Part shown: positions 5,917 through 31,121 of the stretch, piece by piece | Layout: every line of letters begins with the position of its first letter | Position numbering within the stretch: position 1 is the stretch's first letter | Assembly (NCBI GenBank): GCA_902803285.1 | Contig: CADCPC010000043.1 | Location: forward strand, 1 to 45,769 | Direction: 5' to 3' | From: an uncultured Erysipelotrichaceae bacterium | GTDB taxonomy: Bacteria; Bacillota_I; Bacilli_A; RFN20; CAG-826 | DNA: 45,769 nucleotides | Translations under genes and position numbers: made by a program | The notes under the pieces: model-generated | Database searches by the model: none | Seen by the model: only the letters and a program-made list of their open reading frames with translations | What the model was told of the DNA's origin: nothing

Positions 5917-5992
5917 GGGTCATTAGCTCATCTGGGAGAGCGCTTCCATGGCATGGAAGAGGTGGTCGGTTCGAGCCCGATATGATCCACCA
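5917..5992 (+). tRNA. tRNA-Ala(GGC)
   Basis: 76-nt cloverleaf; acceptor GGGTCAT/ATGATCC with G3:U70; anticodon arm CTTCC-ATGGCAT-GGAAG; GGTTCGA T-loop; encoded CCA. Confidence 0.98.
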
Positions 5993-12454: not shown

Positions 12455-12986
12455 CAAAAAACATTACATCATCACCTCTATTACATTAGGTCTTATTGGC
12501 GCGGCTAGCGCTGGTCTTATTGGCCTTAGCAACTTATTAACTAGAGATAGAATTGCTCGTAATGAAGCTAATAAAATCACGAGTGGCATTACTTCTATTT
12601 ATGGAGAAGATGCCTCAGTCAACAAAGAAGAAGACATTTCCGACCACAAATATGTTAACCATATTTATTACATTTATTCTGGAGAAACTTTGAAGGGATA
12701 CGCTTTTAAAACAAGTGGTTCTAATATGTACGGCAAGATTTCTTTGATCCTTGGCTTTGAAATCGAAGGAAATCTAACTCCTTTTGTTGGATTATCAATA
12801 GTTGTTAACGAGCAAACTTATGCGACAACACTAGTGGATAACTATGTCACTCCTGTTAACAACGGTCAAAGAGATTTAGATGATGTGAAGTGTGGTGCGA
12901 CATATGGAGCAACACTCATCAAAGATATGATTTATGAAGCAGCAGATGTTGCTCAAGCAAAATTAACGGTGAATAACAATGAGTAG
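12447..12986 (+). CDS. rnfG: Rnf complex subunit G (FMN-binding)
   Basis: N-terminal TM, GAT flavinylation motif, operon position; ATG 12447 after GGAGGTG. Confidence 0.85.
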   Translation: MSSKKHYIITSITLGLIGAASAGLIGLSNLLTRDRIARNEANKITSGITSIYGEDASVNKEEDISDHKYVNHIYYIYSGETLKGYAFKTSGSNMYGKISLILGFEIEGNLTPFVGLSIVVNEQTYATTLVDNYVTPVNNGQRDLDDVKCGATYGATLIKDMIYEAADVAQAKLTVNNNE

Positions 12987-13743
12987 GGAAAAGGGTTACA
13001 CAAAGAAGAACTTTCTTAAAGGCCTAATTGCTGAGAATCCATTATTTGTCTCCATCTTAGGTACTTGTCCTGCTTTAGCGACAACAAAGTCGATTGAAGC
13101 CGCTTTAGGTATGGGTTTATTATTCACTGTTGTTTTGATTTGTTCTAATATCCTAGTTTCTTTGTTAAGAAAACTTATTTCAGAGGAGATTAGAACCCCT
13201 GCTTATATCGTCATTATTGCGACATTCGTCACTATGGTCAAAATGATGACTAATGCTTTCTTGCCTGAACTATATTCAACATTAGGCGTGTTTATTTCCT
13301 TAATTGTTGTTAACTGTATTGTTTTAGGTAGAGCAGAAGCTTATGCGAGCAAGAATAATGTCTTTGATTCATTAATCGACGCTTTAGGTATGGGTATTGG
13401 TTATACCGTAGCATTATTAATCATGGCATTTTTCAGAGAAGTATTAGGCTCTGGAATGATTACATTTGGCACAATCTTTACCTTTATCCCTAAATTCTCT
13501 ATCCCAATCTTAAAATGTGTGAAAGATGGAGTGGTAATCTACGATTATTCCATTCAAATGTTCCAAAATCCAGCTGGTGCATTTATTGTCTTTGGTTTAA
13601 TCCTAGCGGTTATCGCTTTCGTTAAGAATAGAAAAGCAGAACTTAAAGCTTACCAAGAAAAACAAGAAAAACTTAAGAAAGCAGAAGCCGCTAGACTTGC
13701 TGCAGCTGCAAAGGCTAATGAAACTAGTGGAGGTGACAAATAA
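12979..13743 (+). CDS. rnfE: Rnf complex subunit E
   Basis: ENP....LGTCPALA, LIVVNCIVLGRAE, REVLG.G, PAGAF. Confidence 0.95.
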   Translation: MSREKGYTKKNFLKGLIAENPLFVSILGTCPALATTKSIEAALGMGLLFTVVLICSNILVSLLRKLISEEIRTPAYIVIIATFVTMVKMMTNAFLPELYSTLGVFISLIVVNCIVLGRAEAYASKNNVFDSLIDALGMGIGYTVALLIMAFFREVLGSGMITFGTIFTFIPKFSIPILKCVKDGVVIYDYSIQMFQNPAGAFIVFGLILAVIAFVKNRKAELKAYQEKQEKLKKAEAARLAAAAKANETSGGDK

Positions 13744-14342
13744 TGAGCATCTTTATTTCCTTTATCCTCGCAATATTGTCATCAATGTTAATTGATAATG
13801 TTGTTTTATCTAGATTCTATGGCATTTGTCCTTTCTTAGGCGTTTCTAAAAAGGTGAAATCTTCTTTAGGCATGGGGATTGCTGTTGTCTTTGTTATCGT
13901 CATTGCGACAGTTATTTGTTGGCCTTTATATACATATGTATTAGTCCCAGCAGGAATTGCTTTTATGGATACAGTAGCCTACATCCTAGTTATCGCTTCT
14001 TTAGTTCAACTAGTAGGCTTATTTATAAAGAAGAAGTCCCCTGCTTTATATGAATCATTAGGCATTTACCTACCTCTAATTACCACAAACTGTGCGGTTT
14101 TAGGAGTTGCACAATCTAATACAGATCAAGGTTTAACATTCTTAAACGCTTTAGCTAATGGAGTAGGAACTTCAATTGGCTTCTTACTTATCATCGTCAC
14201 TTTTAGCTGTGTGAGAACTAGACTTGAAAGTGCGAACACTCCAAAAGCATTTAAGGGATTACCTATTGCTTTGATTACCGCTGCTATCATGGCAATTGCT
14301 TTTATGGGATTACAAGGATTATTCTCAGGTATTAAATTATGA
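13743..14342 (+). CDS. rnfA: Rnf complex subunit A
   Basis: N.VL..F.GICPFLGVS, LGIYLPLITTNCAVLG, P.AF.GLPI. Confidence 0.95.
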   Translation: MSIFISFILAILSSMLIDNVVLSRFYGICPFLGVSKKVKSSLGMGIAVVFVIVIATVICWPLYTYVLVPAGIAFMDTVAYILVIASLVQLVGLFIKKKSPALYESLGIYLPLITTNCAVLGVAQSNTDQGLTFLNALANGVGTSIGFLLIIVTFSCVRTRLESANTPKAFKGLPIALITAAIMAIAFMGLQGLFSGIKL

Positions 14343-14533
14343 GTAGTGTTGGATATCTAATTCTCGCAATTGCTATACTTGTCATCTTATTAGCGACATT
14401 TATTATTTCTTTTGTCGCTTATCGTCGTACCCCTCTTCCAAAGGGTTGTGAACATCTTAAGATGGATGACCAAAAGTGTTCTTCTTGTGGACACAGTGAA
14501 TGTTCCTTCTACAAAGGAGAAGAAAAAGAATAA
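14339..14533 (+). CDS. 64-aa TM protein with a 4-Cys tail
   Basis: One TM then C-x8-CxxC-x4-C; ATGA overlap with rnfA stop. Confidence 0.7.
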   Translation: MSSVGYLILAIAILVILLATFIISFVAYRRTPLPKGCEHLKMDDQKCSSCGHSECSFYKGEEKE

Positions 14534-14535
14534 TT

Positions 14536-14853
14536 ATGGAAATATTGTGGGCTGTACTCGTCTTACTTGGACTTGGATTACTTCTCGGCTTAGGTTTAGC
14601 AATTGCCGCAAAACTTTTATATGTCAAAGAAGATGAGAGAATTGATGAAGTCGCTAAAAAGCTTCCTAATTATAACTGTGGTAGTTGTGGCTACGCTGGT
14701 TGTCGCGCTTTAGCGGAAGCAGTGATCAAAGGCAAAGAAGATAACATTAGAAAATGTAAACCAGGCAAAGAAGATCTCAACTTCAAACCAATTATTGAAT
14801 ATCTTAATGAACATCCAAATGAGGATGGTACTAAAGTGAAAATTCGTCCATAA
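14536..14853 (+). CDS. rnfB: Short RnfB (TM + N-terminal Fe-S domain only)
   Basis: V.EDERI...LP..NCGSCGYAGC..LA...C.PG; stops before any ferredoxin domain. Confidence 0.85.
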   Translation: MEILWAVLVLLGLGLLLGLGLAIAAKLLYVKEDERIDEVAKKLPNYNCGSCGYAGCRALAEAVIKGKEDNIRKCKPGKEDLNFKPIIEYLNEHPNEDGTKVKIRP

Positions 14854-14855
14854 GT

Positions 14856-15815
14856 ATGAAAATTAATCGTTTATTATCATTGTTATCTATCGCTATTCTC
14901 ACATCTTGTTCATCTGGCAAAAACTATCTTGATGGCAAGGTTTTTTGTTTTAATACTATCGTTCAAAGCATTCTCTATGAAGGTAACAATAATAATATTA
15001 CCGATATTAAAAATATCTTACTTGAATATGACGCTTTGACTGATAACTATGCAAAAAGAACTGGCATCAATAATGTTTACACCATTAACAACAGCGAAGA
15101 AGCAGTGGAAGTTGATCCTAAACTATATAACATTCTTTCCAAATGCATGGAAGTATCTCAAAAATATGAACTATTTAATCCTCTATGTGGTTCACTAGCA
15201 AAAAAATGGAAGAGCGCTTTAGCAAATAAACAAATATTAGATGAAGCAACCATTAATGAAGAATTAGAGAAGATTAAAAACTCCACTTTAGTGCTTGGAG
15301 AAAATAACACTGTGCAAATTATTGGAGAAGCCGAACTTGACTTAGGAGCGGTCGCAAAAGGATACGCTAACGATATAATTCGTGATTATTTGGCTACTAG
15401 TAGCATTACTAAGTATCTTATTAATTCTGGTGTATCTTCTGTTTTAGCTGGCGAAAAGAATAACACAGATGGTTTATATAATGTAGGATTACCACTCGTT
15501 GTAAAACGTGAATATTTTAAAGCCAAGAACATATTTATTTCCACAAGTGGAAATTACGAACAAGGTGTTGAGATTGAAGGTAAGACTTACTCTCATATCG
15601 TTAATCCAATTACAGGAAGCGCTTTGAACACGAATGATGCGGTGGTCGTGCTATCTGATTCTGGATATTTAGGAGATATCTATTCCACGTTATTAATGAT
15701 GTATGATATCGATGATATCAAGACTTTCGAACAAGAAGAAAACGTTAAAACAATTGTGATTAGAGGGACAGAAATTGTCTATCATCACCCAGATATTGAG
15801 GTCTTAACTCATTAA
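14856..15815 (+). CDS. apbE: FAD:protein FMN transferase lipoprotein
   Basis: Lipobox LTSC; DLGAVAKGY, STSGNYE, HIVNP..G. Confidence 0.93.
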   Translation: MKINRLLSLLSIAILTSCSSGKNYLDGKVFCFNTIVQSILYEGNNNNITDIKNILLEYDALTDNYAKRTGINNVYTINNSEEAVEVDPKLYNILSKCMEVSQKYELFNPLCGSLAKKWKSALANKQILDEATINEELEKIKNSTLVLGENNTVQIIGEAELDLGAVAKGYANDIIRDYLATSSITKYLINSGVSSVLAGEKNNTDGLYNVGLPLVVKREYFKAKNIFISTSGNYEQGVEIEGKTYSHIVNPITGSALNTNDAVVVLSDSGYLGDIYSTLLMMYDIDDIKTFEQEENVKTIVIRGTEIVYHHPDIEVLTH

Positions 15816-16189
15816 TGGATAAAACCAAACTTCGTAATGACATTATTCTTATTTTGTCTCTACTTTTAGTGGCGGCAGTGACTTTAATTGTGTTATTAAC
15901 AAGAACTACTCCTGGGAAAAAAACGGCCCATATTTCGGTGTCTAATCAAGAAGTAGAAGTTGTCGATTTATCTAAAAACGAAGATAAAGAATATTTAATT
16001 AATGGCACAAATGGCGTTTTGCATGTCCATACGCATGAAGGGGCAATTGCAGTTATTGAGTCTAACTGCCCTCATCAAGACTGTGTCCATATGGGCTATA
16101 TAAGTGAAGCTGGTCGTTCTATTGTTTGTATATATAACCAAGTTATTATCACGATTGATGGCGAACCAATAAATGATGTGGAGCTATAA
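15815..16189 (+). CDS. NusG domain II-containing membrane protein
   Basis: N-terminal TM; SNCP..DCV.MG.I......IVC; usual position between apbE and Gx transporter. Confidence 0.85.
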   Translation: MDKTKLRNDIILILSLLLVAAVTLIVLLTRTTPGKKTAHISVSNQEVEVVDLSKNEDKEYLINGTNGVLHVHTHEGAIAVIESNCPHQDCVHMGYISEAGRSIVCIYNQVIITIDGEPINDVEL

Positions 16190-16190
16190 G

Positions 16191-16709
16191 ATGAAAGTTC
16201 AAAAGATTGCTCTGCTTGGTGTATTGACCGCTGCGACAATAGTTATCGCGATTGCTGAAAGTTTTATTCCTTCAATTGGTATTCCAGGAGTAAAGCTTGG
16301 TTTGGCTAATATTATGATATTAGTGACTTTATATGAGCTTGGTATATTAGAAGCAATATTAGTGAATATATTCCGTGTTCTAGTGGTGGGACTAGTTAGA
16401 GGAACATTCTTATCGATGGGCTTTTTAATGTCTCTTACAGGAGCGGTATTATCATTAGCGGTAATGATTCTCTTCTATCTACTTATTAAAAAATTCTCCA
16501 TCATTGGAGTGAGTGTCATAGGTTCTGTTTTTCATGTATTTGGGCAAATCATTATTGCGATGATTTTTATGGGCACTGCTTATATATTGTTCTACCTACC
16601 AATTATTGCGATCTCCGCAATTATCACTGGAGTATTAGTAGGAATTGCCGCTAAATTGATAATTAGAACTGGTGTAATCAAAAAACAGAAAGAGAAATAT
16701 GATTTCTAA
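16191..16709 (+). CDS. Gx transporter / 'heptaprenyl diphosphate synthase component I' family membrane protein
   Basis: E..IP..IPGVKLGLAN, SIIGVSV.G...H..GQ. Confidence 0.88.
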   Translation: MKVQKIALLGVLTAATIVIAIAESFIPSIGIPGVKLGLANIMILVTLYELGILEAILVNIFRVLVVGLVRGTFLSMGFLMSLTGAVLSLAVMILFYLLIKKFSIIGVSVIGSVFHVFGQIIIAMIFMGTAYILFYLPIIAISAIITGVLVGIAAKLIIRTGVIKKQKEKYDF

Positions 16710-16735
16710 AATAAAAACGCACCATATGATGCGTT
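16708..16735 (-). terminator. Terminator of the minus-strand acyl operon (possibly bidirectional)
   Basis: On the minus strand AACGCATCA/TGGTGCGTT followed by TTTATTTT. Confidence 0.65.
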
Positions 16736-17429
16736 AATTGAATTTGGCTTCGAAGTATTTACTTTTGAAGTAGTAATTATCATCGATTTGCTCGTATTCA
16801 TAAGCGAATTTTTTATTAATAGGAATCTCTTTCTTAAATAGAATAGTGATTTCTTTGAAATCTAATGAATCTCCATTAGCGTATATTGTGTCACACATAA
16901 TACTCATATAGTGTGTGTTACTTAAGTGTCCGTTGATGTCCACTAATGAATAGTTTGCGGTGTAAATCTTTTTATTATGGAGTTCCGGTACTTTAAGCTT
17001 TACTACAGGAATAACGTCTGTAGGATTCATTTCTCCATTAATGATGATGCCGTTTTCTGCTGGATCAATAAATTGACGGGTGTTCTTATCGATTAATGAC
17101 CATAAGGCATTTGCTCTAATCAAGACTTCACCTGCTTCGTTTTTAACAATAATATTACGAGGGAAGAAGTAGTGGAGAGTCATTCCAGGAGTGCATTCTA
17201 AGATGATGTTTTCATCATATTCAGGCATTCTGTTTATAAGGATGTGTTCAGAAATGATGACCCACAAGAATCCTTTATCTAGTGTTTTGTCTCTGCCCAT
17301 CCCTAGTTCTTCAGTATGAGCGATACAACACTGCTGAAAAAGGTTCATAAAAGAAGAGAAGGTCATCTTCTTTCTATAATCCACTAGTTCAGATCTAACG
17401 TTAAGTTTTCTAATATAAACTTCGTTCAT
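16734..17429 (-). CDS. Acyl-ACP thioesterase (FatA/B-like double hotdog)
   Basis: V...VD, FQ.....H...LG, W.I......I.R.P, D.NGH..N..Y. Confidence 0.88.
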   Translation of the reverse strand: MNEVYIRKLNVRSELVDYRKKMTFSSFMNLFQQCCIAHTEELGMGRDKTLDKGFLWVIISEHILINRMPEYDENIILECTPGMTLHYFFPRNIIVKNEAGEVLIRANALWSLIDKNTRQFIDPAENGIIINGEMNPTDVIPVVKLKVPELHNKKIYTANYSLVDINGHLSNTHYMSIMCDTIYANGDSLDFKEITILFKKEIPINKKFAYEYEQIDDNYYFKSKYFEAKFN

Positions 17430-17674
17430 TATTTAAGTTCTTTTTGAATTGCGTCTAAAACATCACCAAAGGTGAGCATCTTTTCCCATTTACGATGTGG
17501 GATTTTAATATTGAATTCAGCTTCGATTCTGCACATGACATAGACGAAAGTCATTGAATCAACACCAGCGTCGTTATTAATTCTTGTGTCTTCTTTGAGT
17601 TCAACATCTTCAAATCCAGGTAGACATGTTTGAACGATGATTTGGGTTTTCTTGGCGATTTCTTCTCTTGTCAT
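17429..17674 (-). CDS. Acyl carrier protein
   Basis: 81 aa; GVDSM phosphopantetheine site; IE.EF.I.I; T.GD. Confidence 0.9.
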   Translation of the reverse strand: MTREEIAKKTQIIVQTCLPGFEDVELKEDTRINNDAGVDSMTFVYVMCRIEAEFNIKIPHRKWEKMLTFGDVLDAIQKELK

Positions 17675-17677
17675 TTG

Positions 17678-19000
17678 TTAATCCTCAACTTTAATTAAAT
17701 ATTTCATAACCTTTCCTGTTCCAGTTCTTGGAAGTTTATCTTTTGCGTAGATAATTTTCTCAATCTTGTGAGAACGGGATTGGGTTTTATTGAACTCGTC
17801 TACGATGTTTTCTACATCAATAGGCTTGTATATATACAATATTACTTGTCCTTTAGCATTTTGTAAAATGCAGAAATCACATCCTGGACCTAATAGTGAT
17901 AATAATTTAGCCTCATATTCTGGGATATATAATTTGCTACCATCGCCAAAGACCAATATTTCCTTTTTACGACCAGTAATGAATAGACAACCATCTTCTA
18001 TTTTTCCTAAATCACCAGTGTGGAGCTCTCCGTCAATCAAAGTGGCTTCAGTGGACTTAGGATCGTTATAATAACCTTTCATTAAAGTGGTGTTGCTTTT
18101 AACGATGATTTCTCCATCTTCTGCGATTCTAACTTTATAATCAGGGCAGATGGACATCGCTCTTGGATTATCATGCAATGATAAGGCAATACCAGAACTA
18201 GATTCAGTTAAACCATATCCATATGATAATCTAATACCTAACGCTTTAATCGCATTGATAGTCATATCATCACATGAACCTGCACCGATAAGAATTAATG
18301 ATAGTTCGTTATTGAATAATTTATTGAACACTAAGAATTTTGCCATTTCTGGAACTAGAGTGGTGACAGTTGGTTTATATAAAGCAAAATCAGTAAAGAT
18401 TTGTCTTAAACCATTGCCTAAACAGACAGTTGCACCAAATGAGATTGGCCATAGTATAGAACACACTAACCCAAAGACATGTGATAGTGGCAGAACCGCT
18501 AATAATTTGTCTTCTTTAGTAAGCGGCAATAATGAACCACCGTTAAAAGTAGCGTTACATAGTGTTTGCTCAGTTAAAACGACAGCCTTAGATTCACTTG
18601 TTGTACCACTAGTGAAGAATAAAATATCTTTATCTTCAGTGTGATAGTTAACTTCTAAGTGAGGGGTAAGAATATCTCTTAATTCTTCATCGCCAAATAA
18701 AATATGCCCAACATGAGTGGCTTTAATCTTTTTGATGAGTGATTCTTCTCTTTCGTTAGGGTCTAAGATAATTAATTGTTTCTTACTTGCTAAAGCGAAT
18801 AAGGCAATAATGCTTTCGATATTATTAGAAATAAATAGACCAACAACATCTTCTTTTGGAAGAGGATATTTATGTACTTTTTCAAGTAATTCTCCATAGG
18901 AGATTGATGCGATTTGTCCTTCTTTTAGATAGGAAAAAATGCAATCGTTAGATTCTTGTGCACTGATGAGCTCAGAAAAGCTTTTAAAACGTTTTATCAT
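17678..19000 (-). CDS. Long-chain fatty-acid adenylating enzyme (acyl-CoA/acyl-ACP synthetase)
   Basis: FTSGTTSESK, YGYGLTE, HTGDLG, GRKKE, LPRT.TGK; ATG at 19000 preferred. Confidence 0.9.
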   Translation of the reverse strand: MIKRFKSFSELISAQESNDCIFSYLKEGQIASISYGELLEKVHKYPLPKEDVVGLFISNNIESIIALFALASKKQLIILDPNEREESLIKKIKATHVGHILFGDEELRDILTPHLEVNYHTEDKDILFFTSGTTSESKAVVLTEQTLCNATFNGGSLLPLTKEDKLLAVLPLSHVFGLVCSILWPISFGATVCLGNGLRQIFTDFALYKPTVTTLVPEMAKFLVFNKLFNNELSLILIGAGSCDDMTINAIKALGIRLSYGYGLTESSSGIALSLHDNPRAMSICPDYKVRIAEDGEIIVKSNTTLMKGYYNDPKSTEATLIDGELHTGDLGKIEDGCLFITGRKKEILVFGDGSKLYIPEYEAKLLSLLGPGCDFCILQNAKGQVILYIYKPIDVENIVDEFNKTQSRSHKIEKIIYAKDKLPRTGTGKVMKYLIKVED

Positions 19001-19107
19001 ATAAGTTATTATAGCAAAATATGCTATAGATTGATAAAAATTATTGAAGAAAAGAGTAACTCTCAATTACAATATAATTGTCGTTAAAAATATAAGAGGT
19101 AAAATTA
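19001..19107. promoter_or_regulatory. Divergent promoter region with inverted repeats
   Basis: Minus TGcTATAAT 19016-19008; plus TTGAAG(19044)...TACAAT(19068); IR TATAGCA-5-TGCTATA 19010-19028. Confidence 0.55.
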
Positions 19108-20535
19108 ATGGACAAAAAAACAAGAATAGCCATTATCGGTGGTGGTCCAGCTGGACTTTCTGCTGGTATGTATCTCGAACAAAAAGGCTACGAGAACTAT
19201 GTCATTTTTGAAAAGACAGATCACGTTGGTGGAAAATGTCACTCCCCAACATTCCATGGCAAACGTCATGAAATGGGCGCTATCATGGGTGTCCCTAGTT
19301 ACTATGCAGTTCACGATGTCGAACTCTTTGCTGGCGTAACTCACGATGGACCAAAACTACACAGAACTTACCGTTTACCAAATGGTAAAGTTGATCATCG
19401 TTTCGACAAGAGACTCTTCAACATTCCACATCTCTTAAAGCTCAAAAAGCAAATCAAAAAATTTGGTGAAATCTTAGAAACCAAATATAAAGGTTATGAT
19501 GTTTGTGGCCATAGAGGCGTTTCTGAAGGTAGATACGAAGGTTTCGCAGTCACACCTGGTAGAGAACCAGTTAGCGGTGAAAATCCAAACTTAAAAGATT
19601 TAGCAATGCCTTTCAAACAATTCGTTGAAAAGAATGGCGTTCCACTAGTTCAAGAAATTTGGGTCCAACCATTCACATCATTCGGTTACGGATATTTTGA
19701 CGAAATCCCAGCTGCTTATGTCTTAAAATACTTAGACTTCCAAACCATGATGAACTTCGTCAATGTTAACTTATGGACTTGGAAAGATGGTACACAAAGC
19801 ATCTACGAAGCTTTAAATAGAAAGCTCAAACACCCAGCATTATTAAATAGCAACATCGAAAAGATCGTTCGTGGTGATAAAGTTGAAATCACTGTCAACG
19901 GTAAGAAAGAAGTCTTTGATAAATTAATTATCACTGCTCCATTACAAGTTGGTGAAATCAATAACCCAGTCGCTAAAGGATTAGACACATATCTTGATGT
20001 CACTCCAGAAGAAAGAGAATTATTCTCTAAGATCGACTACGAACGTTATGATACATTCGCATGGAATATGGCTCCAGAAGCATATCCAGAAGCATCATTC
20101 TACGTTGTTGACAATATGACACCAGAGACCTTAGGTCATGGTATGGTCTTCTATATGAGATGGGCTGGAGAACCAGAACAACCAATGATCTCTTATAGAT
20201 TACGTAAACACAGAGATCCAAAAGAAACTGTCGAAGAATACAAAGCACGTCCAGAATTAGGATATGAAGAAACAAAGAAAACTTGTATCGAAGATATCAA
20301 GGCTCTTGGTTTAGCTCCTTTGAAGGATGAAAACGGCAGAGACAAGATTATCTATGAATTCCAAACATATTACTTCCCACACGTCTTCTCTGAAGATTAC
20401 GCAAACGGATGGTATGAAAAAGTTGAAGCTATGCAAGGTAAAAACAATACCTACTATGCTGGTGAAGTTATGTCATTCGGTGACATGGACGAAACTGTCG
20501 AATATTCTAGAGATTTAGTCGAAAGATTCTTCTAA
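19108..20535 (+). CDS. FAD-dependent polyunsaturated fatty acid (linoleate) isomerase, Cutibacterium acnes PAI-like
   Basis: Colinear with PAI as recalled: RIAIIG.GPAGL.AGMYLEQ.G, TDHVGGKCHSP, EMGAIMGVPSY, PFT.FGYG.FD..PAAYVLKYLDF.TMM.F, LWTW.DGTQ, YYFPHV.SEDY..GWYEKVE.MQG, YAGE.MSFG. Confidence 0.88.
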   Translation: MDKKTRIAIIGGGPAGLSAGMYLEQKGYENYVIFEKTDHVGGKCHSPTFHGKRHEMGAIMGVPSYYAVHDVELFAGVTHDGPKLHRTYRLPNGKVDHRFDKRLFNIPHLLKLKKQIKKFGEILETKYKGYDVCGHRGVSEGRYEGFAVTPGREPVSGENPNLKDLAMPFKQFVEKNGVPLVQEIWVQPFTSFGYGYFDEIPAAYVLKYLDFQTMMNFVNVNLWTWKDGTQSIYEALNRKLKHPALLNSNIEKIVRGDKVEITVNGKKEVFDKLIITAPLQVGEINNPVAKGLDTYLDVTPEERELFSKIDYERYDTFAWNMAPEAYPEASFYVVDNMTPETLGHGMVFYMRWAGEPEQPMISYRLRKHRDPKETVEEYKARPELGYEETKKTCIEDIKALGLAPLKDENGRDKIIYEFQTYYFPHVFSEDYANGWYEKVEAMQGKNNTYYAGEVMSFGDMDETVEYSRDLVERFF

Positions 20536-20547
20536 TAAAACAATTTT

Positions 20548-20583
20548 GAATAAAAAGGGGAGTTCATCTCCCCTTATTCTTTA
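20548..20583 (+). terminator. Intercistronic hairpin (partial terminator or stabiliser)
   Basis: AAGGGGAG-ttcat-CTCCCCTT with an interrupted T-tail. Confidence 0.55.
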
Positions 20584-20597
20584 TAAAGGAGAGAAAA

Positions 20598-22172
20598 ATG
20601 GCAAATAAACATTTTCAAGATTCGTATGATGTTGTTGTCATTGGTGGTGCTCTTGCGGGACTTGCCAGTGCCTTAACATTAGCAAAAAAAGGAAAAAAAG
20701 TTCTCGTCTTAGAACAACACAATTTACCTGGTGGTATCGCTACTTCTTTTGTGAGAGGAGATGTCGAAATTGAAGGTACACTTCATGAAATGATGTCTAT
20801 CGGACCAAAAGAATGCCCATTAAAGATTAGAAAATTCTTTGATGAAATGGGTGTTGATATCGAATGGTTACGTGTTCCAGATGCTTATCGTTTTGTCGAT
20901 GGTAAAACTGGAGTTAACGTCTTAGTCCATCCTGGAGATCACGGCAATTTTGAAACGCCTGCTCGTGAAATTGCAGAAGCAGTTGAACCAGGAAACGAAG
21001 AACTTTATAAAAAAGTTTTAGACTTACTCAACTTATGTGGTAGAGTTTATGACTCAGTTAACATTCTTTCTGTTACTCACATGTCCAAAGTTCAAATGTT
21101 ATTGAAACATCCAGACTTTGTTAAGACTGCTGGATATAGCGCTAAGGAAGTTGTTGATACATTTAAACTTCCTCAAAAAGTTGTTGATATCTTATCAGCC
21201 TATTGGATTTATGTCGGTGACATTTTAGAAAACTTACCATTTACTGTTTGGGCTTTCTTAATGGGGGATTACCTCGGATATGGTAGTTATGTTCCAAAGA
21301 AATTCTCACACGAAATGTCTCTTAAGATGTGTGAACGCGCAATAGAAATGGGCTGCCAAGTCGAATTTGGTACACGCGTTGATAAAATCTTAGTCAAGAA
21401 TGGACACGTTGAAGGCGTGAGACTTGCTAATGGTGAAGAAGTTAAAGCAAGATATGTTGTTTGTAGTGCTTATCCTGATAAAGCATATACAAAGATGATT
21501 GAACCTCTCAGCGAAGTTCCTGCTGGCGCACTTAAGTTCGTCAATAGTAAAACTGTCGGTGTGACTTGCTTCTCTGTCGTCTTATTGCTAGACGATGAAC
21601 CAGAGAATTTAGGCATCAAAGATTATTCAACTTTCTATGCTCCAAAAGGTATGGACTTAGAAACAATATTCAAAGAATATGCAACAGAAGGTCCTTACAA
21701 TTACATCACTTCTATTTGTACTAACCTTGCTAACCCAGGTTGTACTCCAAAAGGTACTTGTGTATATTCCATTACTGCACTTCCTAGACCAGAAGGTTGG
21801 CTTGGAGTTACAGAAGAAAATTATGAAGAACTTAAACGTAAGAACGCTGAATATTTCATCGATCAAGAATCTAAACGTTTAGGTGTTGATTTAAGAAAAC
21901 ATATTTTAGAAATTGTTATTGAAGCACCTTGTACAATTGCTCACTACACAGGTGCATATCGTGGAAGTATCTACGGTTATATGCACACAATGGATGACCA
22001 TATTGTGGCAAGACTTCAAATGAGTGAAAAAGAAAACTTCATTCAAGGCTTATCTTTCGCTGGCGCTCACCAAATCTCTGGTGATGGTATGGGACCAGCA
22101 GTCACTAATGGTCGTAAAGGCGCAAAGATCATCTTAGACATGATGGAAGAAGACGCTAAGGAGGGCAAATAA
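20598..22172 (+). CDS. CrtI/CrtISO/retinol-saturase-like FAD oxidoreductase
   Basis: DVVVIGG..AGL..A, VLEQHN.PGG.ATSF.RG, P.T...YTG..RGSIYG, GL.FAG...G.G....V..G; SD AAGGAG. Confidence 0.85.
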   Translation: MANKHFQDSYDVVVIGGALAGLASALTLAKKGKKVLVLEQHNLPGGIATSFVRGDVEIEGTLHEMMSIGPKECPLKIRKFFDEMGVDIEWLRVPDAYRFVDGKTGVNVLVHPGDHGNFETPAREIAEAVEPGNEELYKKVLDLLNLCGRVYDSVNILSVTHMSKVQMLLKHPDFVKTAGYSAKEVVDTFKLPQKVVDILSAYWIYVGDILENLPFTVWAFLMGDYLGYGSYVPKKFSHEMSLKMCERAIEMGCQVEFGTRVDKILVKNGHVEGVRLANGEEVKARYVVCSAYPDKAYTKMIEPLSEVPAGALKFVNSKTVGVTCFSVVLLLDDEPENLGIKDYSTFYAPKGMDLETIFKEYATEGPYNYITSICTNLANPGCTPKGTCVYSITALPRPEGWLGVTEENYEELKRKNAEYFIDQESKRLGVDLRKHILEIVIEAPCTIAHYTGAYRGSIYGYMHTMDDHIVARLQMSEKENFIQGLSFAGAHQISGDGMGPAVTNGRKGAKIILDMMEEDAKEGK

Positions 22173-22173
22173 G

Positions 22174-23349
22174 ATGAAAGTTAAAGGCTTTTTAAAAGAC
22201 GTTGGTGGCGCTTCTAGAGTTACCAAAAGAAGACAAGAAAACTTTGATAAAGCTCCTGCAACTTCTCAATATAACGATCCGATTACAGAAGTAGCAAGAA
22301 AACTTCATCCTGGATTCATTAAATTAACTGTAACTGCAGTTAAAGATGCTTCTCCAACAGCGAGAACATTAAGATTCGAAGCTCCACATCTTCCATATTT
22401 CAGAGCTGGTCAATTCTTAACTTTACTAGTTAAGATTGGTGATTCTCTTGTTACTAGACCATATTCCATTTCTAGCGCACCTTATGAGACTAGAGGTGAT
22501 AAGCCATTAGTGGAAATCACTGTGAGAAAATCTAAAGGTGACGGATTCATTTGTGACTACTTATATGAAAAAGTGAAAGTTGGAGATGAATTCCTTGGCG
22601 AAGTTGGTTTAGGTGAATTCCATTATGATTACATTAGAGATGCGAAAGACGTTGTTGCTATCGCTGGTGGTAGTGGCATTACTCCTTTTGCATCAATGGC
22701 AAAAGAAATTAAAAATGGTAAACTCGACATGCATCTCACAATTCTTTATGGTTCTGTCAGTGATAAAGATATCATCTTAAAAGATGAATTAGATAAATGT
22801 GAATGCGAAAAGGTTAGAGTAGTTCACGTTTTAAGCGGTGATAACCCTTCTTGGAAAGGCGAAAAAGGCTTTATCAACGCGGATATCATTAAGAAATATT
22901 CTAGCGAAGACACCACATATTTCATTTGTGGACCACAAGTGATGTATGACTTTGTTAAAGGAGAATTAGCAAAGCTAAATATTCCTAAACGTAGAGTGAG
23001 ATTTGAAGTCTTTGGTCAAGTTAGAGACATCACTAAATTTGCAGGATTCCCAGTGGAATTAAAAGACAAAGTCTTTAACTTAACAGTTTGTAAAGGCATC
23101 TCTGAACAAGTTATTCCTGCAAAATGTAATGAGAGCATTGCTGTCGCACTTGAAAGAGCGGGAATTAAAGTTCATACAGCATGTCGTAGTGGCGCTTGTG
23201 GATTCTGCAGAATAAAAGTTCTTGAAGGTTCATATTATGTTTGCCCAGTTGGCGATGGTCGTAGAGCAGCAGATAAAGACTTCAATTACGTCCATTCTTG
23301 CTCAACTTATCCAACAAGTGATATTAAGATTAAACTTAATATTGACTAA
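22174..23349 (+). CDS. FNR-family NAD(P)H:flavin reductase with C-terminal [2Fe-2S] domain
   Basis: RPYSISS, AGGSGITP, CGP..M, E.FG, CRSGACGFC...C. Confidence 0.92.
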   Translation: MKVKGFLKDVGGASRVTKRRQENFDKAPATSQYNDPITEVARKLHPGFIKLTVTAVKDASPTARTLRFEAPHLPYFRAGQFLTLLVKIGDSLVTRPYSISSAPYETRGDKPLVEITVRKSKGDGFICDYLYEKVKVGDEFLGEVGLGEFHYDYIRDAKDVVAIAGGSGITPFASMAKEIKNGKLDMHLTILYGSVSDKDIILKDELDKCECEKVRVVHVLSGDNPSWKGEKGFINADIIKKYSSEDTTYFICGPQVMYDFVKGELAKLNIPKRRVRFEVFGQVRDITKFAGFPVELKDKVFNLTVCKGISEQVIPAKCNESIAVALERAGIKVHTACRSGACGFCRIKVLEGSYYVCPVGDGRRAADKDFNYVHSCSTYPTSDIKIKLNID

Positions 23350-23358
23350 AGATAATAT

Positions 23359-23393
23359 AAAAGACATCTAAGAGAAATCTTGGATGTTTTTTT
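23359..23393 (+). terminator. Intrinsic terminator
   Basis: GACATCTAAGA-gaaa-TCTTGGATGTT plus T-run. Confidence 0.85.
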
Positions 23394-23419
23394 GTGCACA
23401 ATAAATTAAAATAAGTAAT

Positions 23420-24322
23420 ATGAAAAAGAAGAGCATTATAATTGCCGGTTGCGTTGCTTTAGGCGCGATTATTTTTTCTTGCCTAGGATTTTCTGGCATC
23501 CTCAAACAGAAAAGCAAGAATACGAATTACGCAGATTGGATGTCTCATCTTGCGGATTCAACTTCTTTAAGAGACATCAATATGCCTGGTAGTCATGACA
23601 CAATGGCCTTATATTCTATCGCTGATTTAGCGGGACAGTGCCAGTCATTATCTTTAGGAGATCAACTTAATCTAGGAGTTAGATTCTTAGACATTAGATT
23701 AAAAGAAGAAAATAACTCTTTAAAAGCGGTACATGGTTTTATTGATCAACACGCTTATTTTAGTGATATTACTTCTACTGTTGAATCTTTCTTAGAAAAC
23801 CATCCAACCGAATTTATTATTATGTCGATTAAAGAAGAAGCTGATAGTAGCAAATCTACAATTAGCTTTGAAGAAGCGGTTAAGAATTACCTTAAGAGTG
23901 ATGTTTATTTAAAAGAGACAAGTTTACCAACCTCTTTAGGAACAGTTAGAGGCAAAGTCATGCTTTTATCTAGATATGCGAATTCTTCAATCGGAATCCC
24001 TGCTTATAATGGATGGGCTGATTCTACTTCCTTTACATTACCAAATGATATCTATGTTCAAGATACCTATAAGATTAAATCTAAAGAAGAAAAGCAAGAC
24101 GAAATCATCAAGTGTTTTAATGAGAGTGGTCACGCTTTGAAAATTAATTTCTTAAGTGCGTACCGCACTAACTATTTGCCACCTAGTTATGCACCTAGTG
24201 CAGCCTTAGATATCGACCCTTGGATTAACGCGAATATAGATAAATATAATGACCGCGGTATTGTTTTATATGACTTTGTTACTGAAACAAATATGACCGC
24301 TTTCTTTAAGGGGGCAATCTAA
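23420..24322 (+). CDS. Exported phosphatidylinositol-specific phospholipase C-like (PI-PLC X domain)
   Basis: Signal/TM; WMS.L, PGSHDT, QL..GVRFLDIRL, HG, FL..HP.E..I, RGKV. Confidence 0.88.
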   Translation: MKKKSIIIAGCVALGAIIFSCLGFSGILKQKSKNTNYADWMSHLADSTSLRDINMPGSHDTMALYSIADLAGQCQSLSLGDQLNLGVRFLDIRLKEENNSLKAVHGFIDQHAYFSDITSTVESFLENHPTEFIIMSIKEEADSSKSTISFEEAVKNYLKSDVYLKETSLPTSLGTVRGKVMLLSRYANSSIGIPAYNGWADSTSFTLPNDIYVQDTYKIKSKEEKQDEIIKCFNESGHALKINFLSAYRTNYLPPSYAPSAALDIDPWINANIDKYNDRGIVLYDFVTETNMTAFFKGAI

Positions 24323-24720
24323 TGAAAACTTTTAGAACTATCCTCCTATATATCGGAGCTTCATTTGTCGCTCTAATTGCTTTTTTATTAGCATTTTTAG
24401 AAATTAGAAGCATTTTTGCCGGTGATTTTACACTTATGAATAATAGAGCTGCTAGTTTCTTCGCTTATCTATTTAGAGGTTTATTCTATTTAGGTTTGTT
24501 AGCCGAGGCTATCATTTTAATGATATTCAAAGGCAAACACATCAAGATTGATTTATCATTATTCATTGTTTCTGTTGGCTTATTTGGTGGTGGAATTCTA
24601 GCATTTATTTATTACCACTTCATTGTTGCTTTAGCAGTAACAGTAGTAGCATTGATACCAGTAATTATCACAGCGATTGAACACTTTGCGATTAAAGAAA
24701 AAGACACTGTTGAGGAATAA
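24322..24720 (+). CDS. Hypothetical 4-TM membrane protein
   Basis: Four hydrophobic segments; TAATG coupling to the PLC gene. Confidence 0.7.
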   Translation: MKTFRTILLYIGASFVALIAFLLAFLEIRSIFAGDFTLMNNRAASFFAYLFRGLFYLGLLAEAIILMIFKGKHIKIDLSLFIVSVGLFGGGILAFIYYHFIVALAVTVVALIPVIITAIEHFAIKEKDTVEE

Positions 24721-24724
24721 TAAT

Positions 24725-26416
24725 ATGCCATTAGGAAGCACAATTAACTCTTTGATGATGATTGTTGGCAATATCAACACTGATAAGCCAACTAAGCAGG
24801 TAATTAAAAATCGTAAAAAAGATAAGCCTGCTACTTTTCCTCGTGGGGAAGAAGTTAACTTCTTACCTAGAAGTAGGCCTAGTAAGCATGGTTATTCAGA
24901 GGAATATATCAATTCATTTTTCCATGAATTAGAATCGGATTTATCTATTAGGGCTAACCGTTGTTTAATTGTTAAGGATAACTATGTTATTGGAGAAAAA
25001 TATGAATACCCTTATGTTAAAGATGCTTGGGATCATATATTTTCCGCAACCAAAACAGTTACAACTTTAGCGTTAGGTTTATTATATGATGAAGGCAAAA
25101 TTGATTTAGACGCCCCCGTATATAAAATACTTAAAATTAAACCAGGGAATGCTGCTAATAAAAAGATTACGTTAAGACATTTATTAACTATGACTACTGG
25201 TGTCTTGTTCAATGAAGTTGAAAGTGCAGCAACCACTAAATGGGTTAAAGGATTCTTTGGTTCAGGAGCTAAATTCAAAGTTGGTAAAAAGTTTGATTAT
25301 AATTCACTAAATACATATATCATCTCTGTTGTTGTCGAAAAGATAGCAGGTATTAGCTTTGAAGAATTCATTAAAGAAAGAATATTCAAACCTTTAGATA
25401 TGAATTCTTGCCATTTAGATAAATCTCCAGAAGGATATTTTAAAGGCGGATGGGGATTATATATTCTTCCAGAAGATATGGCAAAATTAGGCATCCTTGT
25501 CAAAGACAAAGGTGTTTATAACAATAAACGTATTATCTCTGAAAAATGGATAGAAATGATGAGCAGTAAACAAATCGAGGCCACTAAATACGGAAGAAGA
25601 TTTGATTATGGCTTTCAAATGTGGGTTTGTGATGAACATCATTTCTGCATGTTCAATGGCCTATATAATCAAGACATCATTATCTTTAAGGAAACAGGAG
25701 TGGTGCTAGTGGTGGCCTCTTCTAACGGAGAAGCGTTCCATGGCTCTAACTATTTCGATATCGCGATTAAATACTTTGCAAGCAAAGAAAAAACTACTGA
25801 ACTTTGCGAGACAAAAGGTTCGAGAGATATTGCAAATTTGTCCCATCTAAATTACTACTATGACAAGATTGCAAATCAAGAATACTTACCTTTGGGTAAG
25901 ATTGCTAATTCTTGTGGTGTTCTACCTCTGTTAATTCAAAATGAAGTAGGCACTTATGCACAAGGAATTAAATCATTATATTTTAAGAAAGAAAATGATC
26001 AGTACGCTCTTGTGATAAACGAAGGAAAAGAGAGCTATGAACTACCATTTAATTTCGAAAATGGAGTTCGTAATATTTATAACTTCTACGGCAATTTATT
26101 TGACTGTGTTTGTGATGGCAGATTTATGCTAACCGCTAAGGGTTTACCTCTATTTGTTTTCAGAATGTTTTTCTTAGAATATTCTTCTTCCAGATACATC
26201 ACTGTGAAATTTGATAAACGATTTGATTTGTTATCATTAGAGTTAAGTGAATATCCAGGATTTGACTTTGTCGCTTCACTTATGGATGAACAAGATGAAC
26301 CGGTGAAGAACCTTCTTAATAGTGCAATGAAGGCAATTAATCCAGCGATATTAAAGGGAAAGATTAAAGATATCTTTGCTCCTAACTTCATGATTAAAAA
26401 GAAGGAAGAGAAATAA
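24725..26416 (+). CDS. Beta-lactamase-fold serine hydrolase (esterase-like) with C-terminal extension
   Basis: FSATK (SxxK), TLRHLLTMTTG, F.YNS, RIF.PL.M, GGWGL, YGFQ.W; ATG 24725 after GAGGA. Confidence 0.85.
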   Translation: MPLGSTINSLMMIVGNINTDKPTKQVIKNRKKDKPATFPRGEEVNFLPRSRPSKHGYSEEYINSFFHELESDLSIRANRCLIVKDNYVIGEKYEYPYVKDAWDHIFSATKTVTTLALGLLYDEGKIDLDAPVYKILKIKPGNAANKKITLRHLLTMTTGVLFNEVESAATTKWVKGFFGSGAKFKVGKKFDYNSLNTYIISVVVEKIAGISFEEFIKERIFKPLDMNSCHLDKSPEGYFKGGWGLYILPEDMAKLGILVKDKGVYNNKRIISEKWIEMMSSKQIEATKYGRRFDYGFQMWVCDEHHFCMFNGLYNQDIIIFKETGVVLVVASSNGEAFHGSNYFDIAIKYFASKEKTTELCETKGSRDIANLSHLNYYYDKIANQEYLPLGKIANSCGVLPLLIQNEVGTYAQGIKSLYFKKENDQYALVINEGKESYELPFNFENGVRNIYNFYGNLFDCVCDGRFMLTAKGLPLFVFRMFFLEYSSSRYITVKFDKRFDLLSLELSEYPGFDFVASLMDEQDEPVKNLLNSAMKAINPAILKGKIKDIFAPNFMIKKKEEK

Positions 26417-26493: not shown

Positions 26494-27165
26494 ATGAGCG
26501 AAGTAAAAATAGTAGAAATTAAAGAAGATATCTCTGAGAGATATGCTCCTTACGCTGAAGAGATTAGGAAAATTCTTAAAGAGAAGAAAACCTATCTTTT
26601 AAATGTTATGTCTTCTCCAGGAAGTGGAAAGACTACTTTAATTATTGAATTAATTAACAAGCTAAAAAAAGATTTTCATATTGGAGTTCTAGAAACTGAT
26701 ATTGACGGTAAAGAAGATGCTCAAAGGATACATGATGGTACTGGTGTGAGAACTATCCAAATCCATACTGGTGGAGCATGTCATTTAACAAGCAAAATGT
26801 CTCTTGAGGCATTATCTTTACTAGATGATGAACACTTTGATCTAATCGTTTTGGAAAACATCGGCAACCTAGTGTGCCCGGCAGAATTTGATGTTGGGGC
26901 AATTAAGAACTTAATCTTGTTATCTCTACCAGAAGGAGATGACAAACCACTCAAATATCCATTGATGTTTGAAGTTGCTAATATCATCGCAATTACCAAG
27001 CTAGATACTGCTCCTGTATTTGATTTTTCTAAAGAAAAAGCTATTCAAAATATTAAAAAGAGAAATGAACATGTAGATATATTCTTTACTAGTAGCAAAA
27101 CTGGTGAAGGTGTTGATGAGTTAGTTAAATATCTAACTAATGAAGTTAAGGAATTTATTAAATAA
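26494..27165 (+). CDS. hypB: HypB-family metallochaperone GTPase, copy 1
   Basis: MSSPGSGKT, TGGACHL, ENIGNLVCPAEFD.G, EGDDKPLKYP, TKLD, S.KTG.G. Confidence 0.93.
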   Translation: MSEVKIVEIKEDISERYAPYAEEIRKILKEKKTYLLNVMSSPGSGKTTLIIELINKLKKDFHIGVLETDIDGKEDAQRIHDGTGVRTIQIHTGGACHLTSKMSLEALSLLDDEHFDLIVLENIGNLVCPAEFDVGAIKNLILLSLPEGDDKPLKYPLMFEVANIIAITKLDTAPVFDFSKEKAIQNIKKRNEHVDIFFTSSKTGEGVDELVKYLTNEVKEFIK

Positions 27166-27836
27166 TGAGTGAAGTTAAGACTATTTTACTTAATCGTTCA
27201 GTAGCGGATTCCATTGAAGAAGAAGCAGAAGAACTCAGGCAAGAATTAAAGGCTAAAAAGACCTTCCTTTTAAATGTCATGTCTTCTCCTGGAAGTGGAA
27301 AAACTACAACCTTAATCAAGATTATTAACGCTCTTAAAGATAAATTCAAAATTGCAATTATGGAAGCTGATATCGATAGTGATGTTGACGCTATTAAAGT
27401 TTCTAAAGAGACAGGCATCAAATCTATTCAACTCCACACTGGTGGCATGTGCCACTTAGATGGAGCGATGACTAGACAAGGCCTAGATGAATTAGATGGA
27501 CATTATGACTTTGTCATATTAGAGAATGTTGGTAACCTCGTTTGTCCAGCGGAATTTGATACCGGAGCTTCACTTAACATGGTTATTCTTTCTGTTCCAG
27601 AAGGAAGTGATAAACCACTCAAATATCCATTGATGTTTGAAAAAAGTAACCTCGTTCTTATAAATAAGATTGACACAATTGATTATTTCGATTTCAATTA
27701 TAATGTAGTCAGCGACTTTATTTATAAAAGAAATAAAAATGCGCAGATATTCAAAATATCGGCAAAAGTAGGCACGGGCATCAAAGAAGTATGTGACTAT
27801 TTAACTAAGGAAATTGAAAACTGGGGAGGAAAATAA
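27165..27836 (+). CDS. hypB: HypB-family metallochaperone GTPase, copy 2
   Basis: MSSPGSGKT, TGGMCHL, ENVGNLVCPAEFD.G, EGSDKPLKYP, NKID, SAK.G.G. Confidence 0.93.
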   Translation: MSEVKTILLNRSVADSIEEEAEELRQELKAKKTFLLNVMSSPGSGKTTTLIKIINALKDKFKIAIMEADIDSDVDAIKVSKETGIKSIQLHTGGMCHLDGAMTRQGLDELDGHYDFVILENVGNLVCPAEFDTGASLNMVILSVPEGSDKPLKYPLMFEKSNLVLINKIDTIDYFDFNYNVVSDFIYKRNKNAQIFKISAKVGTGIKEVCDYLTKEIENWGGK

Positions 27837-27839
27837 TAC

Positions 27840-30767: not shown

Positions 30768-30770
30768 TTC

Positions 30771-31121
30771 ATGCATGAATTAGGCATTGTGTTTCATATC
30801 ATCAAAGATATTGACAAAATTGCCGAAGAGAATCACGTTAAACAAGTTAAAAGTGTAACCCTTGAACTCGGTGAAGTTTCAGGAGTCATTCCTGAATACC
30901 TAGTCGATGTATGGAATTGGGCATGTGAAAACAAGTCCAAGTACATGAAGGGCTGCAAACTTGATCTTAAGATCATTAAAGCAATCACTTTCTGTGATAG
31001 CTGTAAGAAAACATATTCCACTTTAAAAGGCAAGATTTGCCCTTATTGTGGCAGTAAAGAAACGTGGCTATTAGAAGGCAACGAAACGAAAATAAAAAGC
31101 ATAGAAGTAGTGGATTCCTAG
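30771..31121 (+). CDS. hypA: HypA nickel metallochaperone
   Basis: N-terminal MHE Ni-binding motif; GE.SGV; CDSC...CPYCGS zinc finger. Confidence 0.95.
   Translation: MHELGIVFHIIKDIDKIAEENHVKQVKSVTLELGEVSGVIPEYLVDVWNWACENKSKYMKGCKLDLKIIKAITFCDSCKKTYSTLKGKICPYCGSKETWLLEGNETKIKSIEVVDS

Follow-up and report, generated by a model that had tools for sequence, protein, structure and literature searches.

A PAI-family isomerase gene and its relatives

The stretch of DNA analyzed here (the window; 45,769 nucleotides, contig CADCPC010000043.1 of GenBank assembly GCA_902803285.1, forward strand) comes from an uncultured Erysipelotrichaceae bacterium. On its forward strand, at positions 19108 to 20535, lies a gene for a homolog of PAI, the FAD-dependent fatty-acid double-bond isomerase of Cutibacterium acnes. 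A divergent set of three genes (ligase, acyl carrier protein [ACP], and thioesterase) adjoins it on one side and genes for a CrtI-like flavoprotein and a reductase on the other, making a cluster of six. An ATG-to-stop open reading frame (ORF) was confirmed at exactly 19108 to 20535; it encodes 475 aa, and a Shine-Dalgarno-like AAGAGG lies 8 nt 5′ of its start codon. The translation has the N-terminal dinucleotide (FAD) binding motif (IIGGGPAGLSAG ... FEK ... HVGGK; PF13450, 44.1 bits), with GxGxxG at residues 11 to 16, and matches the Pfam Amino_oxidase profile with 54.3 bits. It also contains all of the peptides that an earlier note, made from the sequence alone, had named: GAIMG, GPKLHR, PFTSFGYG, TMMNF, and GVSEGRYEGFAVTPGREPVSGENP.

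In a phmmer search against PDB chain sequences, PAI (2b9w and five sister entries) was the top match (E = 2.3e-118), aligned in two stretches covering query residues 2 to 136 and 163 to 475. The second-best match (E = 1.4e-06) was confined to the N-terminal dinucleotide-binding stretch. For pairwise alignment, a 424-aa protein encoded on a metagenome contig (L088:6001-7272) served as the PAI reference; it scores 1009.9 bits against positions 1 to 424 of 2b9w. BLASTP of the isomerase against this reference gave 218/476 identities (46%) with 56 gap positions and paired M62, R88, F168, and F193 of PAI with M60, R86, F192, and F217 of the window protein, identical at all four positions. We take Met62, Arg88, Phe168, and Phe193 of PAI to be substrate-channel residues, among which Arg88 (R86 here) presumably binds the free carboxylate.

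An AlphaFold2 model of the isomerase, built from an alignment of 17 homologs, had a pLDDT of 81.4 and a pTM of 0.86, with pLDDT below 50 at residues 61 to 64 and 186 to 195, which adjoin the putative channel residues. Foldseek against the PDB again returned 2b9w first (E = 1.5e-44; TM score of 0.82 by query and 0.92 by target; root mean square deviation of 2.7 Å). The runner-up was CpaO (E = 3.5e-19), and nicotine oxidases and amine oxidases were also among the structural neighbors, the amine oxidase structures at 11 to 17% identity in the alignment. The window isomerase thus resembles PAI (2B9W/2BAB) in its predicted three-domain flavoprotein fold, N-terminal FAD motif, and residues equivalent to 62, 88, 168, and 193. 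Neither protein has a signal peptide or membrane segments in its sequence, and the window isomerase is 51 residues longer. The ORF is a genuine member of the PAI family. The E value of 2.3e-118, the 46% identity, and the first rank of 2b9w by fold bear out the earlier claim of a full-length PAI-type protein, and the further claim of intact key residues agrees with an alignment in which none of the four counterparts is lost.

The PAI type proved to be widespread. A word-indexed protein search found 1067 relatives of the isomerase at E ≤ 1e-10 among 7707 candidates, and the 120 matches listed were 62 to 95% identical to it. As had been guessed, annotation is vague: where relatives carry a label, it is only "FAD-dependent oxidoreductase" or "protoporphyrinogen oxidase." An exhaustive search of 50%-identity representatives gave 137 clusters at E ≤ 1e-30, and, with each prokaryotic species represented by one genome, a further scan gave 579 stretches that encode a relative. 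The best 80 of these 579 species-level stretches formed our locus survey. By record title, these 80 loci are mostly from ruminant and gut metagenome-assembled genomes (MAGs), with titles including Erysipelotrichaceae, Bacilli, Solobacterium, Lachnospiraceae, Clostridia, Oscillospiraceae, and Candidatus Enterosoma or Enteromonas. Many human-gut "cleanbin" assemblies (L018 to L048) carry closely similar clusters under titles that include Escherichia coli, Alistipes, Bacteroides uniformis, Parasutterella, and Faecalibacterium prausnitzii. In the tree, their isomerases fall together with sequences from MAGs of uncultured Mollicutes, Bacilli, and Candidatus Enteromonas, and the organism labels of these assemblies look unreliable.

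With 1067 proteins and 579 species-level genomes, a PAI-type enzyme outside Cutibacterium is not the exception that the earlier note implied, and there is published precedent. A 2023 study (PMC10019597) reports homologs in seven rumen MAGs by BLASTp at ≥40% identity to PAI and links rumen-made trans-10,cis-12 CLA (conjugated linoleic acid) to low milk fat. A 2026 review (PMC13365329) gives PAI for P. acnes only, as the sole entry of its own group. Among open-access full texts and bioRxiv, we found no publication that assays a PAI-family member from outside Cutibacterium and none on the gene neighborhood of such homologs.

The putative channel residues are strongly conserved among the 91 aligned non-Cutibacterium locus homologs. 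F192 and F217 are each kept in 91/91; M60 is kept in 89 (Arg instead in L041 and L043) and R86 in 87 (His in L045; Ser in L051, L053, and L057). This conservation is informative because divergent family representatives have substituted one to four of the residues: all four are replaced in P0123, two each in P0125 and P0127, and one in P0134. These four representatives (an Atopobium sp. oral taxon 416 protein belongs to the P0123 cluster) are 39 to 48% identical, and they probably differ in substrate or chemistry.

The main extra segment relative to PAI comprises 22 residues by BLASTP (137 to 158) or 26 by phmmer (137 to 162), and BLASTP places smaller insertions near residues 283 to 291, 375 to 384, and 402 to 408. 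In the model, the segment forms a short helix and a β-hairpin (strands 142 to 146 and 154 to 158) within a block of pLDDT 81 to 88. It is conserved in 17/17 aligned homologs, with G137, V138, G141, Y143, G145, G157, N159, and L162 invariant, and is present in 91/91 non-Cutibacterium locus homologs. It is missing from 6/6 Cutibacterium-type PAI proteins and from six distant representatives of ~420 aa, and four divergent representatives have a variant form. The earlier note had pointed to the segment as an addition relative to PAI and suggested that it could alter substrate entry or partner docking. The segment is not special to the window protein, since all 91 of these locus homologs share it and PAI is the form without it; a role in partner docking finds no support, as the segment is also present in stand-alone members that have no ligase or ACP neighbors. 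As a mark of ACP-coupled enzymes, the segment is likewise ruled out as a simple rule, being found in stand-alone proteins L101 and L102 and in 7/7 paralogs from the host's own genus.

Family relationships were examined in a maximum likelihood tree for which 109 aligned sequences were hand-thinned to 52, one or a few per clade. The tree came from a quick search with SH-aLRT support only and was rooted on six short distant sequences; long-branch warnings apply. PAI has a long branch (0.68) and is sister, with a support of 92, to the segment-bearing proteins as a whole. Given this position and branch length, PAI looks like a trimmed outlier in a family found mainly in gut and rumen. The tree sister of the window isomerase itself (support of 97) is a 476-aa protein, ORX76944.1, encoded on a 94.9-kb contig of the anaerobic rumen fungus Anaeromyces robustus and 82% identical to the window protein. 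A gene may have passed from a bacterium to the fungus in the rumen, or the fungal assembly may be contaminated with bacterial DNA.

A conserved cluster of six genes

Upstream of the isomerase gene and divergent from it, an adenylate-forming (AMP-binding) ligase is encoded at 17678 to 19066 on the reverse strand (PF00501, 104.5 bits). Its best PDB relatives are acyl-, oxalyl-, and succinylbenzoate-CoA ligases and FadD13, and it carries a C-terminal PRTGTGK motif. The listed ligase ORF begins with TTG at 19066; an alternative ATG at 19000, corresponding to residue 23, is the likelier true start. A TGnTATAAT-like extended −10 box (a 10-of-12 site) lies 8 nt upstream of this ATG, which has no Shine-Dalgarno motif, and a −10-like box so near the start codon (region 18998 to 19037) would fit a leaderless ligase mRNA. 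The promoter scan of 16500 to 24500 as a whole was uninformative, with 27 sites versus 28.0 expected from shuffles.

Next on the reverse strand is a dedicated ACP of 81 aa (17429 to 17674; PF00550, 25.1 bits versus a cutoff of 20.8). Its DSM phosphopantetheine-attachment motif includes Asp39-Ser40, a pair that is invariant in 26/26 orthologs. NCBIfam ACP models match it below cutoff, and it scores lowest of the six PP-binding matches in the host genome. The third gene of the set, at 16734 to 17429 on the reverse strand, encodes an acyl-ACP thioesterase of 231 aa with a FatA/B-type pair of hot-dog domains, both above cutoff (PF01643, 80 bits versus 23.7; PF20791, 23.6 versus 21).

Downstream of the isomerase gene, a GC-rich hairpin with a perfect 8-bp stem (20555 to 20575, forward strand) lies between the isomerase stop codon and the start codon of the next gene and is possibly a terminator or attenuator. 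That next gene (20598 to 22172, forward strand) encodes a CrtI/CRTISO-like FAD flavoprotein of 524 aa. Like members of the CrtI/CRTISO/RetSat group, this protein aligns end to end with the Amino_oxidase profile (PF01593, 1 to 442 of 443 positions); unlike theirs, its gene is partnered with an NADH/2Fe-2S reductase and an isomerase rather than with carotenoid genes. Its best PDB match is 4rep (E = 2.2e-10). The score of 77.4 bits with TIGR02734, the phytoene desaturase (CrtI) subfamily model, falls well short of the cutoff of 238.1, and the best NCBIfam models (phytoene desaturase family and carotenoid isomerase) are all far below their cutoffs, which places the protein in the wider Amino_oxidase superfamily only. 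Its neighbors in the Atlas carry generic labels or those of the phytoene desaturase or prolycopene isomerase family.

The sixth gene (22174 to 23349, forward strand) encodes an FNR-type FAD/NAD(P)H reductase of 391 aa with a C-terminal plant-type 2Fe-2S domain (PF00970, PF00175, and PF00111). The domain order, FAD_binding_6, NAD_binding_1, and C-terminal 2Fe-2S, is that of Hcr/PaaE-type reductases. In contrast to these, it matches PaaE, Hcr, and BenC-type models at E values of 1e-34 to 1e-36 that are all below cutoff, and the Hcp, Paa, and Rieske partners are not nearby. Within the cluster, the CrtI-like flavoprotein would be the sole candidate acceptor for its electrons.

The 80 loci were searched by tblastn with the window proteins, and a match was required over at least half of the query length. 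The ligase and the ACP were each found in 77 loci, the thioesterase in 73, the CrtI-like protein in 46, and the reductase in 44. Across these loci the isomerases are 61 to 88% identical to the window protein and the neighbor proteins 30 to 70%. Window genes outside the cluster recurred in at most three loci (ApbE in three, PI-PLC in one, the rest in none). Three loci have neither ligase nor ACP. In two of them, the DNA upstream of the isomerase gene runs to less than 250 bp; in L017, the remaining one, it extends for 2.4 kb, and the contig breaks off 1.8 kb downstream. The ligase-ACP-thioesterase trio of L007 and L011 has been relocated downstream of the reductase gene, so linkage survives rearrangement. 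Unsupervised clustering of all 1620 ORFs of ≥90 aa in the 80 loci, a length limit that the ACP does not reach, recovered the isomerase, ligase, thioesterase, CrtI-like, and reductase families; besides antisense shadow ORFs, this clustering gave no further neighbor family in more than 13 of the 80 loci.

The cluster also occurs in metagenome loci of 38 to 61% GC: L095, L100, L104, and L107 have it complete, whereas L096, L098, and L106, which are cut contigs, have part of it. PAI differs from the window gene in this respect: none of the ligase, ACP, thioesterase, CrtI-like, and reductase genes was found at any of seven Cutibacterium-type PAI loci, two of which have ~6 kb of upstream and ~3.7 kb of downstream DNA. 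The main clade of the family is thus embedded in a conserved module of four to six genes with a dedicated carrier protein.

On the 3′ side of the cluster, positions 23420 to 26416 encode a PI-PLC X-domain protein, a 132-aa ORF without a family match, and a 579-aa beta-lactamase-family (esterase-like) protein. These genes, which might be lipolytic, stand beside the cluster in 1, 0, and 0 of the 80 loci, respectively. Further on, at 26494 to 31121, is a metal-insertion and redox group consisting of two tandem CobW/HypB-type GTPases, a 975-aa Fe-S and pyridine-nucleotide-disulfide oxidoreductase, and HypA.

Host genome, accessory island, and presence in ruminant libraries

The host assembly (1,036,820 bp in 73 contigs, with the window as contig C43) is 91% complete and 1.2% contaminated and has one isomerase copy. 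Ketoacyl synthase (PF00109) was not found in this 91%-complete genome, and 14/14 control genomes matched the profile; oleate hydratase (MCRA) and phytoene synthase (SQS_PSY) families were likewise not found in it. The genome does encode two PlsX, three DegV (FakB-type), and two Dak2 (FakA-type) proteins, including a FakA-PlsX-ACP-DegV set, whose ACP is distinct from that of the cluster, on contig C14 and two FakA-PlsX sets overall (contigs C1 and C14). From this gene content, the host, a ruminant-gut bacterium with a small genome, appears to depend on exogenous fatty acids. Since the usual Firmicute route of fatty-acid incorporation is already present, the ligase-ACP-thioesterase trio would be additional and dedicated. 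Of the other PP-binding domains in the genome, one lies within a 1954-aa open frame (G000:C39:42241-42432) and two more in frames of 674 and 494 aa, large carrier-protein-containing enzymes for a 1-Mb genome.

A scan of 40 relatives at E ≤ 1e-30 gave an isomerase match in 18 of the 22 same-genus genomes and in none of the 18 that represent other genera within the family and order. The same-genus matches are 52 to 55% identical in the genome scan and 45 to 48% by tblastn. The seven paralogs whose loci were examined retain all four PAI residues and have the extra segment in a variant or longer form; one of them (L118) sits among unrelated genes, for AsnA, PTS EIIC, an endonuclease, and phosphoglucomutase. 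The stand-alone paralog (45 to 48% identity) was not found in the host genome, and a search of five same-genus genomes for the cluster ligase gave only partial matches of 34 to 35% identity, in three of the five.

One same-genus contig (G015 contig C2; L125, G015:C2:5713-12362) is collinear with positions 10032 to 16709 of the window at 50 to 94% protein identity. The collinear stretch spans the Rnf genes to a heptaprenyl-diphosphate-synthase-I-like gene and stops exactly at the thioesterase gene (16709/16734); window ORFs beyond this boundary have no match in the 40 kb of G015 examined. By this comparison, the contig belongs to this lineage, and the six-gene cluster is an accessory island in it. 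The closest carriers of related clusters (L002, L003, L007, L011, and L013) are other ruminant MAGs, at 85 to 88% identity. Signs of a mobile element were not seen at the island edges: the lone tRNA of the window is distant (5917 to 5992) and GC content is flat at 0.31 to 0.40 (repeats were not searched for).

Near-identical cluster DNA is present in bovine, goat, and sheep gut metagenomes, with at least 46% of sampled words found in 14 runs from seven studies; one of these runs may be the source sample. In addition, ruminant metatranscriptomes of four studies contain contigs that lie on the isomerase gene with high identity. The longest is 1427 nt over 19114 to 20536 with 14 differences, and others are 751 nt (two differences), 768 nt (one), and 568 nt (one). 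Shorter pieces fall on the ligase, ACP, thioesterase, and CrtI-like genes; for such contigs, gaps in cover are not evidence of silence and contig depth cannot rank genes. These RNA-library contigs are consistent with transcription of the isomerase gene. Those of two studies end at 20536, just 5′ of the hairpin at 20555 to 20575, a weak hint of a transcript boundary.

A candidate pathway and its alternatives

Taking homology and gene context together, we think it probable that the window protein is a PAI-type polyunsaturated fatty acid (PUFA) isomerase within a module for PUFA remodeling and partial (trans-10-type) biohydrogenation. As a soluble FAD-containing enzyme of a gut and rumen clade sister to the Cutibacterium enzyme, it would convert the methylene-interrupted cis,cis diene of linoleic or α-linolenic acid to a conjugated diene, which by analogy with PAI may be of the trans-10,cis-12 type. 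PAI moves and flips the double bond through transient reduction of its FAD; the reaction proposed here would similarly involve transient hydride transfer to FAD, with zero net redox change. The isomerase gene would be the first of the conserved module and the ligase, ACP, and thioesterase genes would form a divergent operon, whose products may load the fatty acid, carry it, and release it, respectively. The ligase-ACP-thioesterase partnership persists in the 34 loci that have no CrtI-like gene, which suggests a stage at which the dedicated ACP carries the fatty acid.

The CrtI-like flavoprotein and the NAD(P)H/FAD/2Fe-2S reductase could together constitute a two-component reductase for the conjugated diene, the 2Fe-2S reductase being the putative electron donor to the CrtI-like protein. 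We favor diene reduction for the CrtI-like protein because it is paired with an NAD(P)H reductase in a gut anaerobe and because a carotenoid pathway was not found. RetSat offers a saturase analog. A fair alternative is that the CrtI-like protein is another isomerase, of the CRTISO type and dependent on reduced flavin.

Whether the isomerase acts on the free acid or on acyl-ACP is a matter of roughly even odds. The carboxylate presumably lies at the mouth of the PAI substrate channel, which would allow an acyl-phosphopantetheine thioester to enter the same way round. A free-acid substrate fits equally since R86 is conserved and stand-alone paralogs exist. A complex prediction for the isomerase and ACP, run without controls, scored 0.13 versus a mark of 0.32 and speaks neither for nor against binding.

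The task proposed for the module, isomerization and partial saturation of linoleic acid by several gene products, is one that the CLA-HY, CLA-DH, CLA-DC, and CLA-ER proteins of Lactobacillus plantarum perform, as described in PMC13365329. That system consists of unrelated families (a hydratase, a short-chain dehydrogenase, an acetoacetate decarboxylase-type isomerase, and an enone reductase) and proceeds through hydroxy and oxo intermediates with no carrier protein, whereas the window module has an ACP.

Several considerations weigh against a PUFA-remodeling module of this kind. The CrtI-like gene is absent from the available DNA of 34 of the 80 loci. The segment-bearing isomerases of L101 and L102 (64% identity) stand alone without cluster neighbors, and none of the five neighbors was found within ~7 kb at 7/7 same-genus loci examined. 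The retention of R86 in 87/91 homologs fits a free acid at least as well as an ACP-tethered substrate. An identity of 46% to PAI does not fix the substrate or the product isomer, gene adjacency is no proof of a shared pathway, and the CrtI family consists mostly of desaturases or isomerases, which makes the reductase role an analogy. Finally, a 91%-complete MAG cannot prove the absence of fatty-acid synthesis, and the RNA-library contigs can stem from contaminating DNA.

One alternative is that the protein is a plain PAI-like isomerase that detoxifies free PUFA, with neighbors that serve other lipid tasks such as phospholipid routing. PAI itself stands alone, with the five neighbors at 0/7 Cutibacterium-type loci; stand-alone members that have the extra segment and all four residues exist; and R86 is conserved. 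Still, the ligase and ACP adjoin the isomerase gene in 77/80 loci even though isomerases there are 61 to 88% identical to the window protein and neighbor proteins 30 to 70%, the trio remains linked even after rearrangement in L007 and L011, and two FakA-PlsX sets and another ACP already cover general fatty-acid use in the host. We regard a free-PUFA detoxifier as rather unlikely, although it is the best placed of the alternatives.

It is also conceivable, but decidedly improbable, that the PAI fold here performs another flavin reaction, as a desaturase, oxidase, or cis-trans isomerase, and that the cluster builds a specialized conjugated or polyene lipid. The superfamily is chemically diverse, with CpaO, nicotine oxidases, and amine oxidases next in structure; the logic of ligase, ACP, and thioesterase is typical of biosynthetic tailoring; and the CrtI family is best known for desaturation. 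Against this, PAI is far ahead of the next match in both structure (E = 1.5e-44 versus 3.5e-19) and sequence (2.3e-118 versus 1.4e-06), and the PAI channel residues are kept. Moreover, the ketoacyl synthase and phytoene synthase for a de novo polyene were not found in the host genome, and an NADH-type reductase in a gut anaerobe is more in keeping with reduction than with oxygen-dependent desaturation. That the protein is a protoporphyrinogen oxidase or a generic amine oxidase, as JGI names of relatives and the 54.3-bit Amino_oxidase match might suggest, is most improbable and is effectively refuted by the PDB matches, the Foldseek result, and family scores far below cutoff (TIGR00562, 21.5 bits versus 97.85; PRK11883 models, 28 to 33 bits versus 517 to 560, both covering only the first ~55 residues), while amine oxidase structures align at just 11 to 17% identity.

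Returning to the preferred reading of a PAI-type isomerase in a PUFA-remodeling module, part of the picture is already known: the PAI family has been noticed in rumen MAGs by others, and the isomerase alone is an expected homolog. What appears new is the gene context, the conserved β-hairpin segment of the clade, and the position of PAI as a shortened, stand-alone, atypical member of a family that is mainly of gut and rumen and has a conserved gene partnership. The interest therefore lies in the cluster, which may explain microbial reshaping of dietary polyunsaturated fats and which raises the possibility that isomerase chemistry is run on a carrier protein. It provides concrete candidate genes for the isomerase step and a subsequent reductase step that can be tracked in metatranscriptomes. 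In its most specific form, which we put forward tentatively and hold to be on the unlikely side, the proposal is of an undescribed carrier-protein-linked pathway from linoleate through trans-10,cis-12 CLA to trans-10 18:1 in uncultured small-genome Bacilli and other rumen and gut Firmicutes. The interest would be high if the module were indeed a trans-10 biohydrogenation pathway, as it would provide the organisms responsible for the "trans-10 shift" in the rumen, together with a conjugated-linoleate reductase gene.

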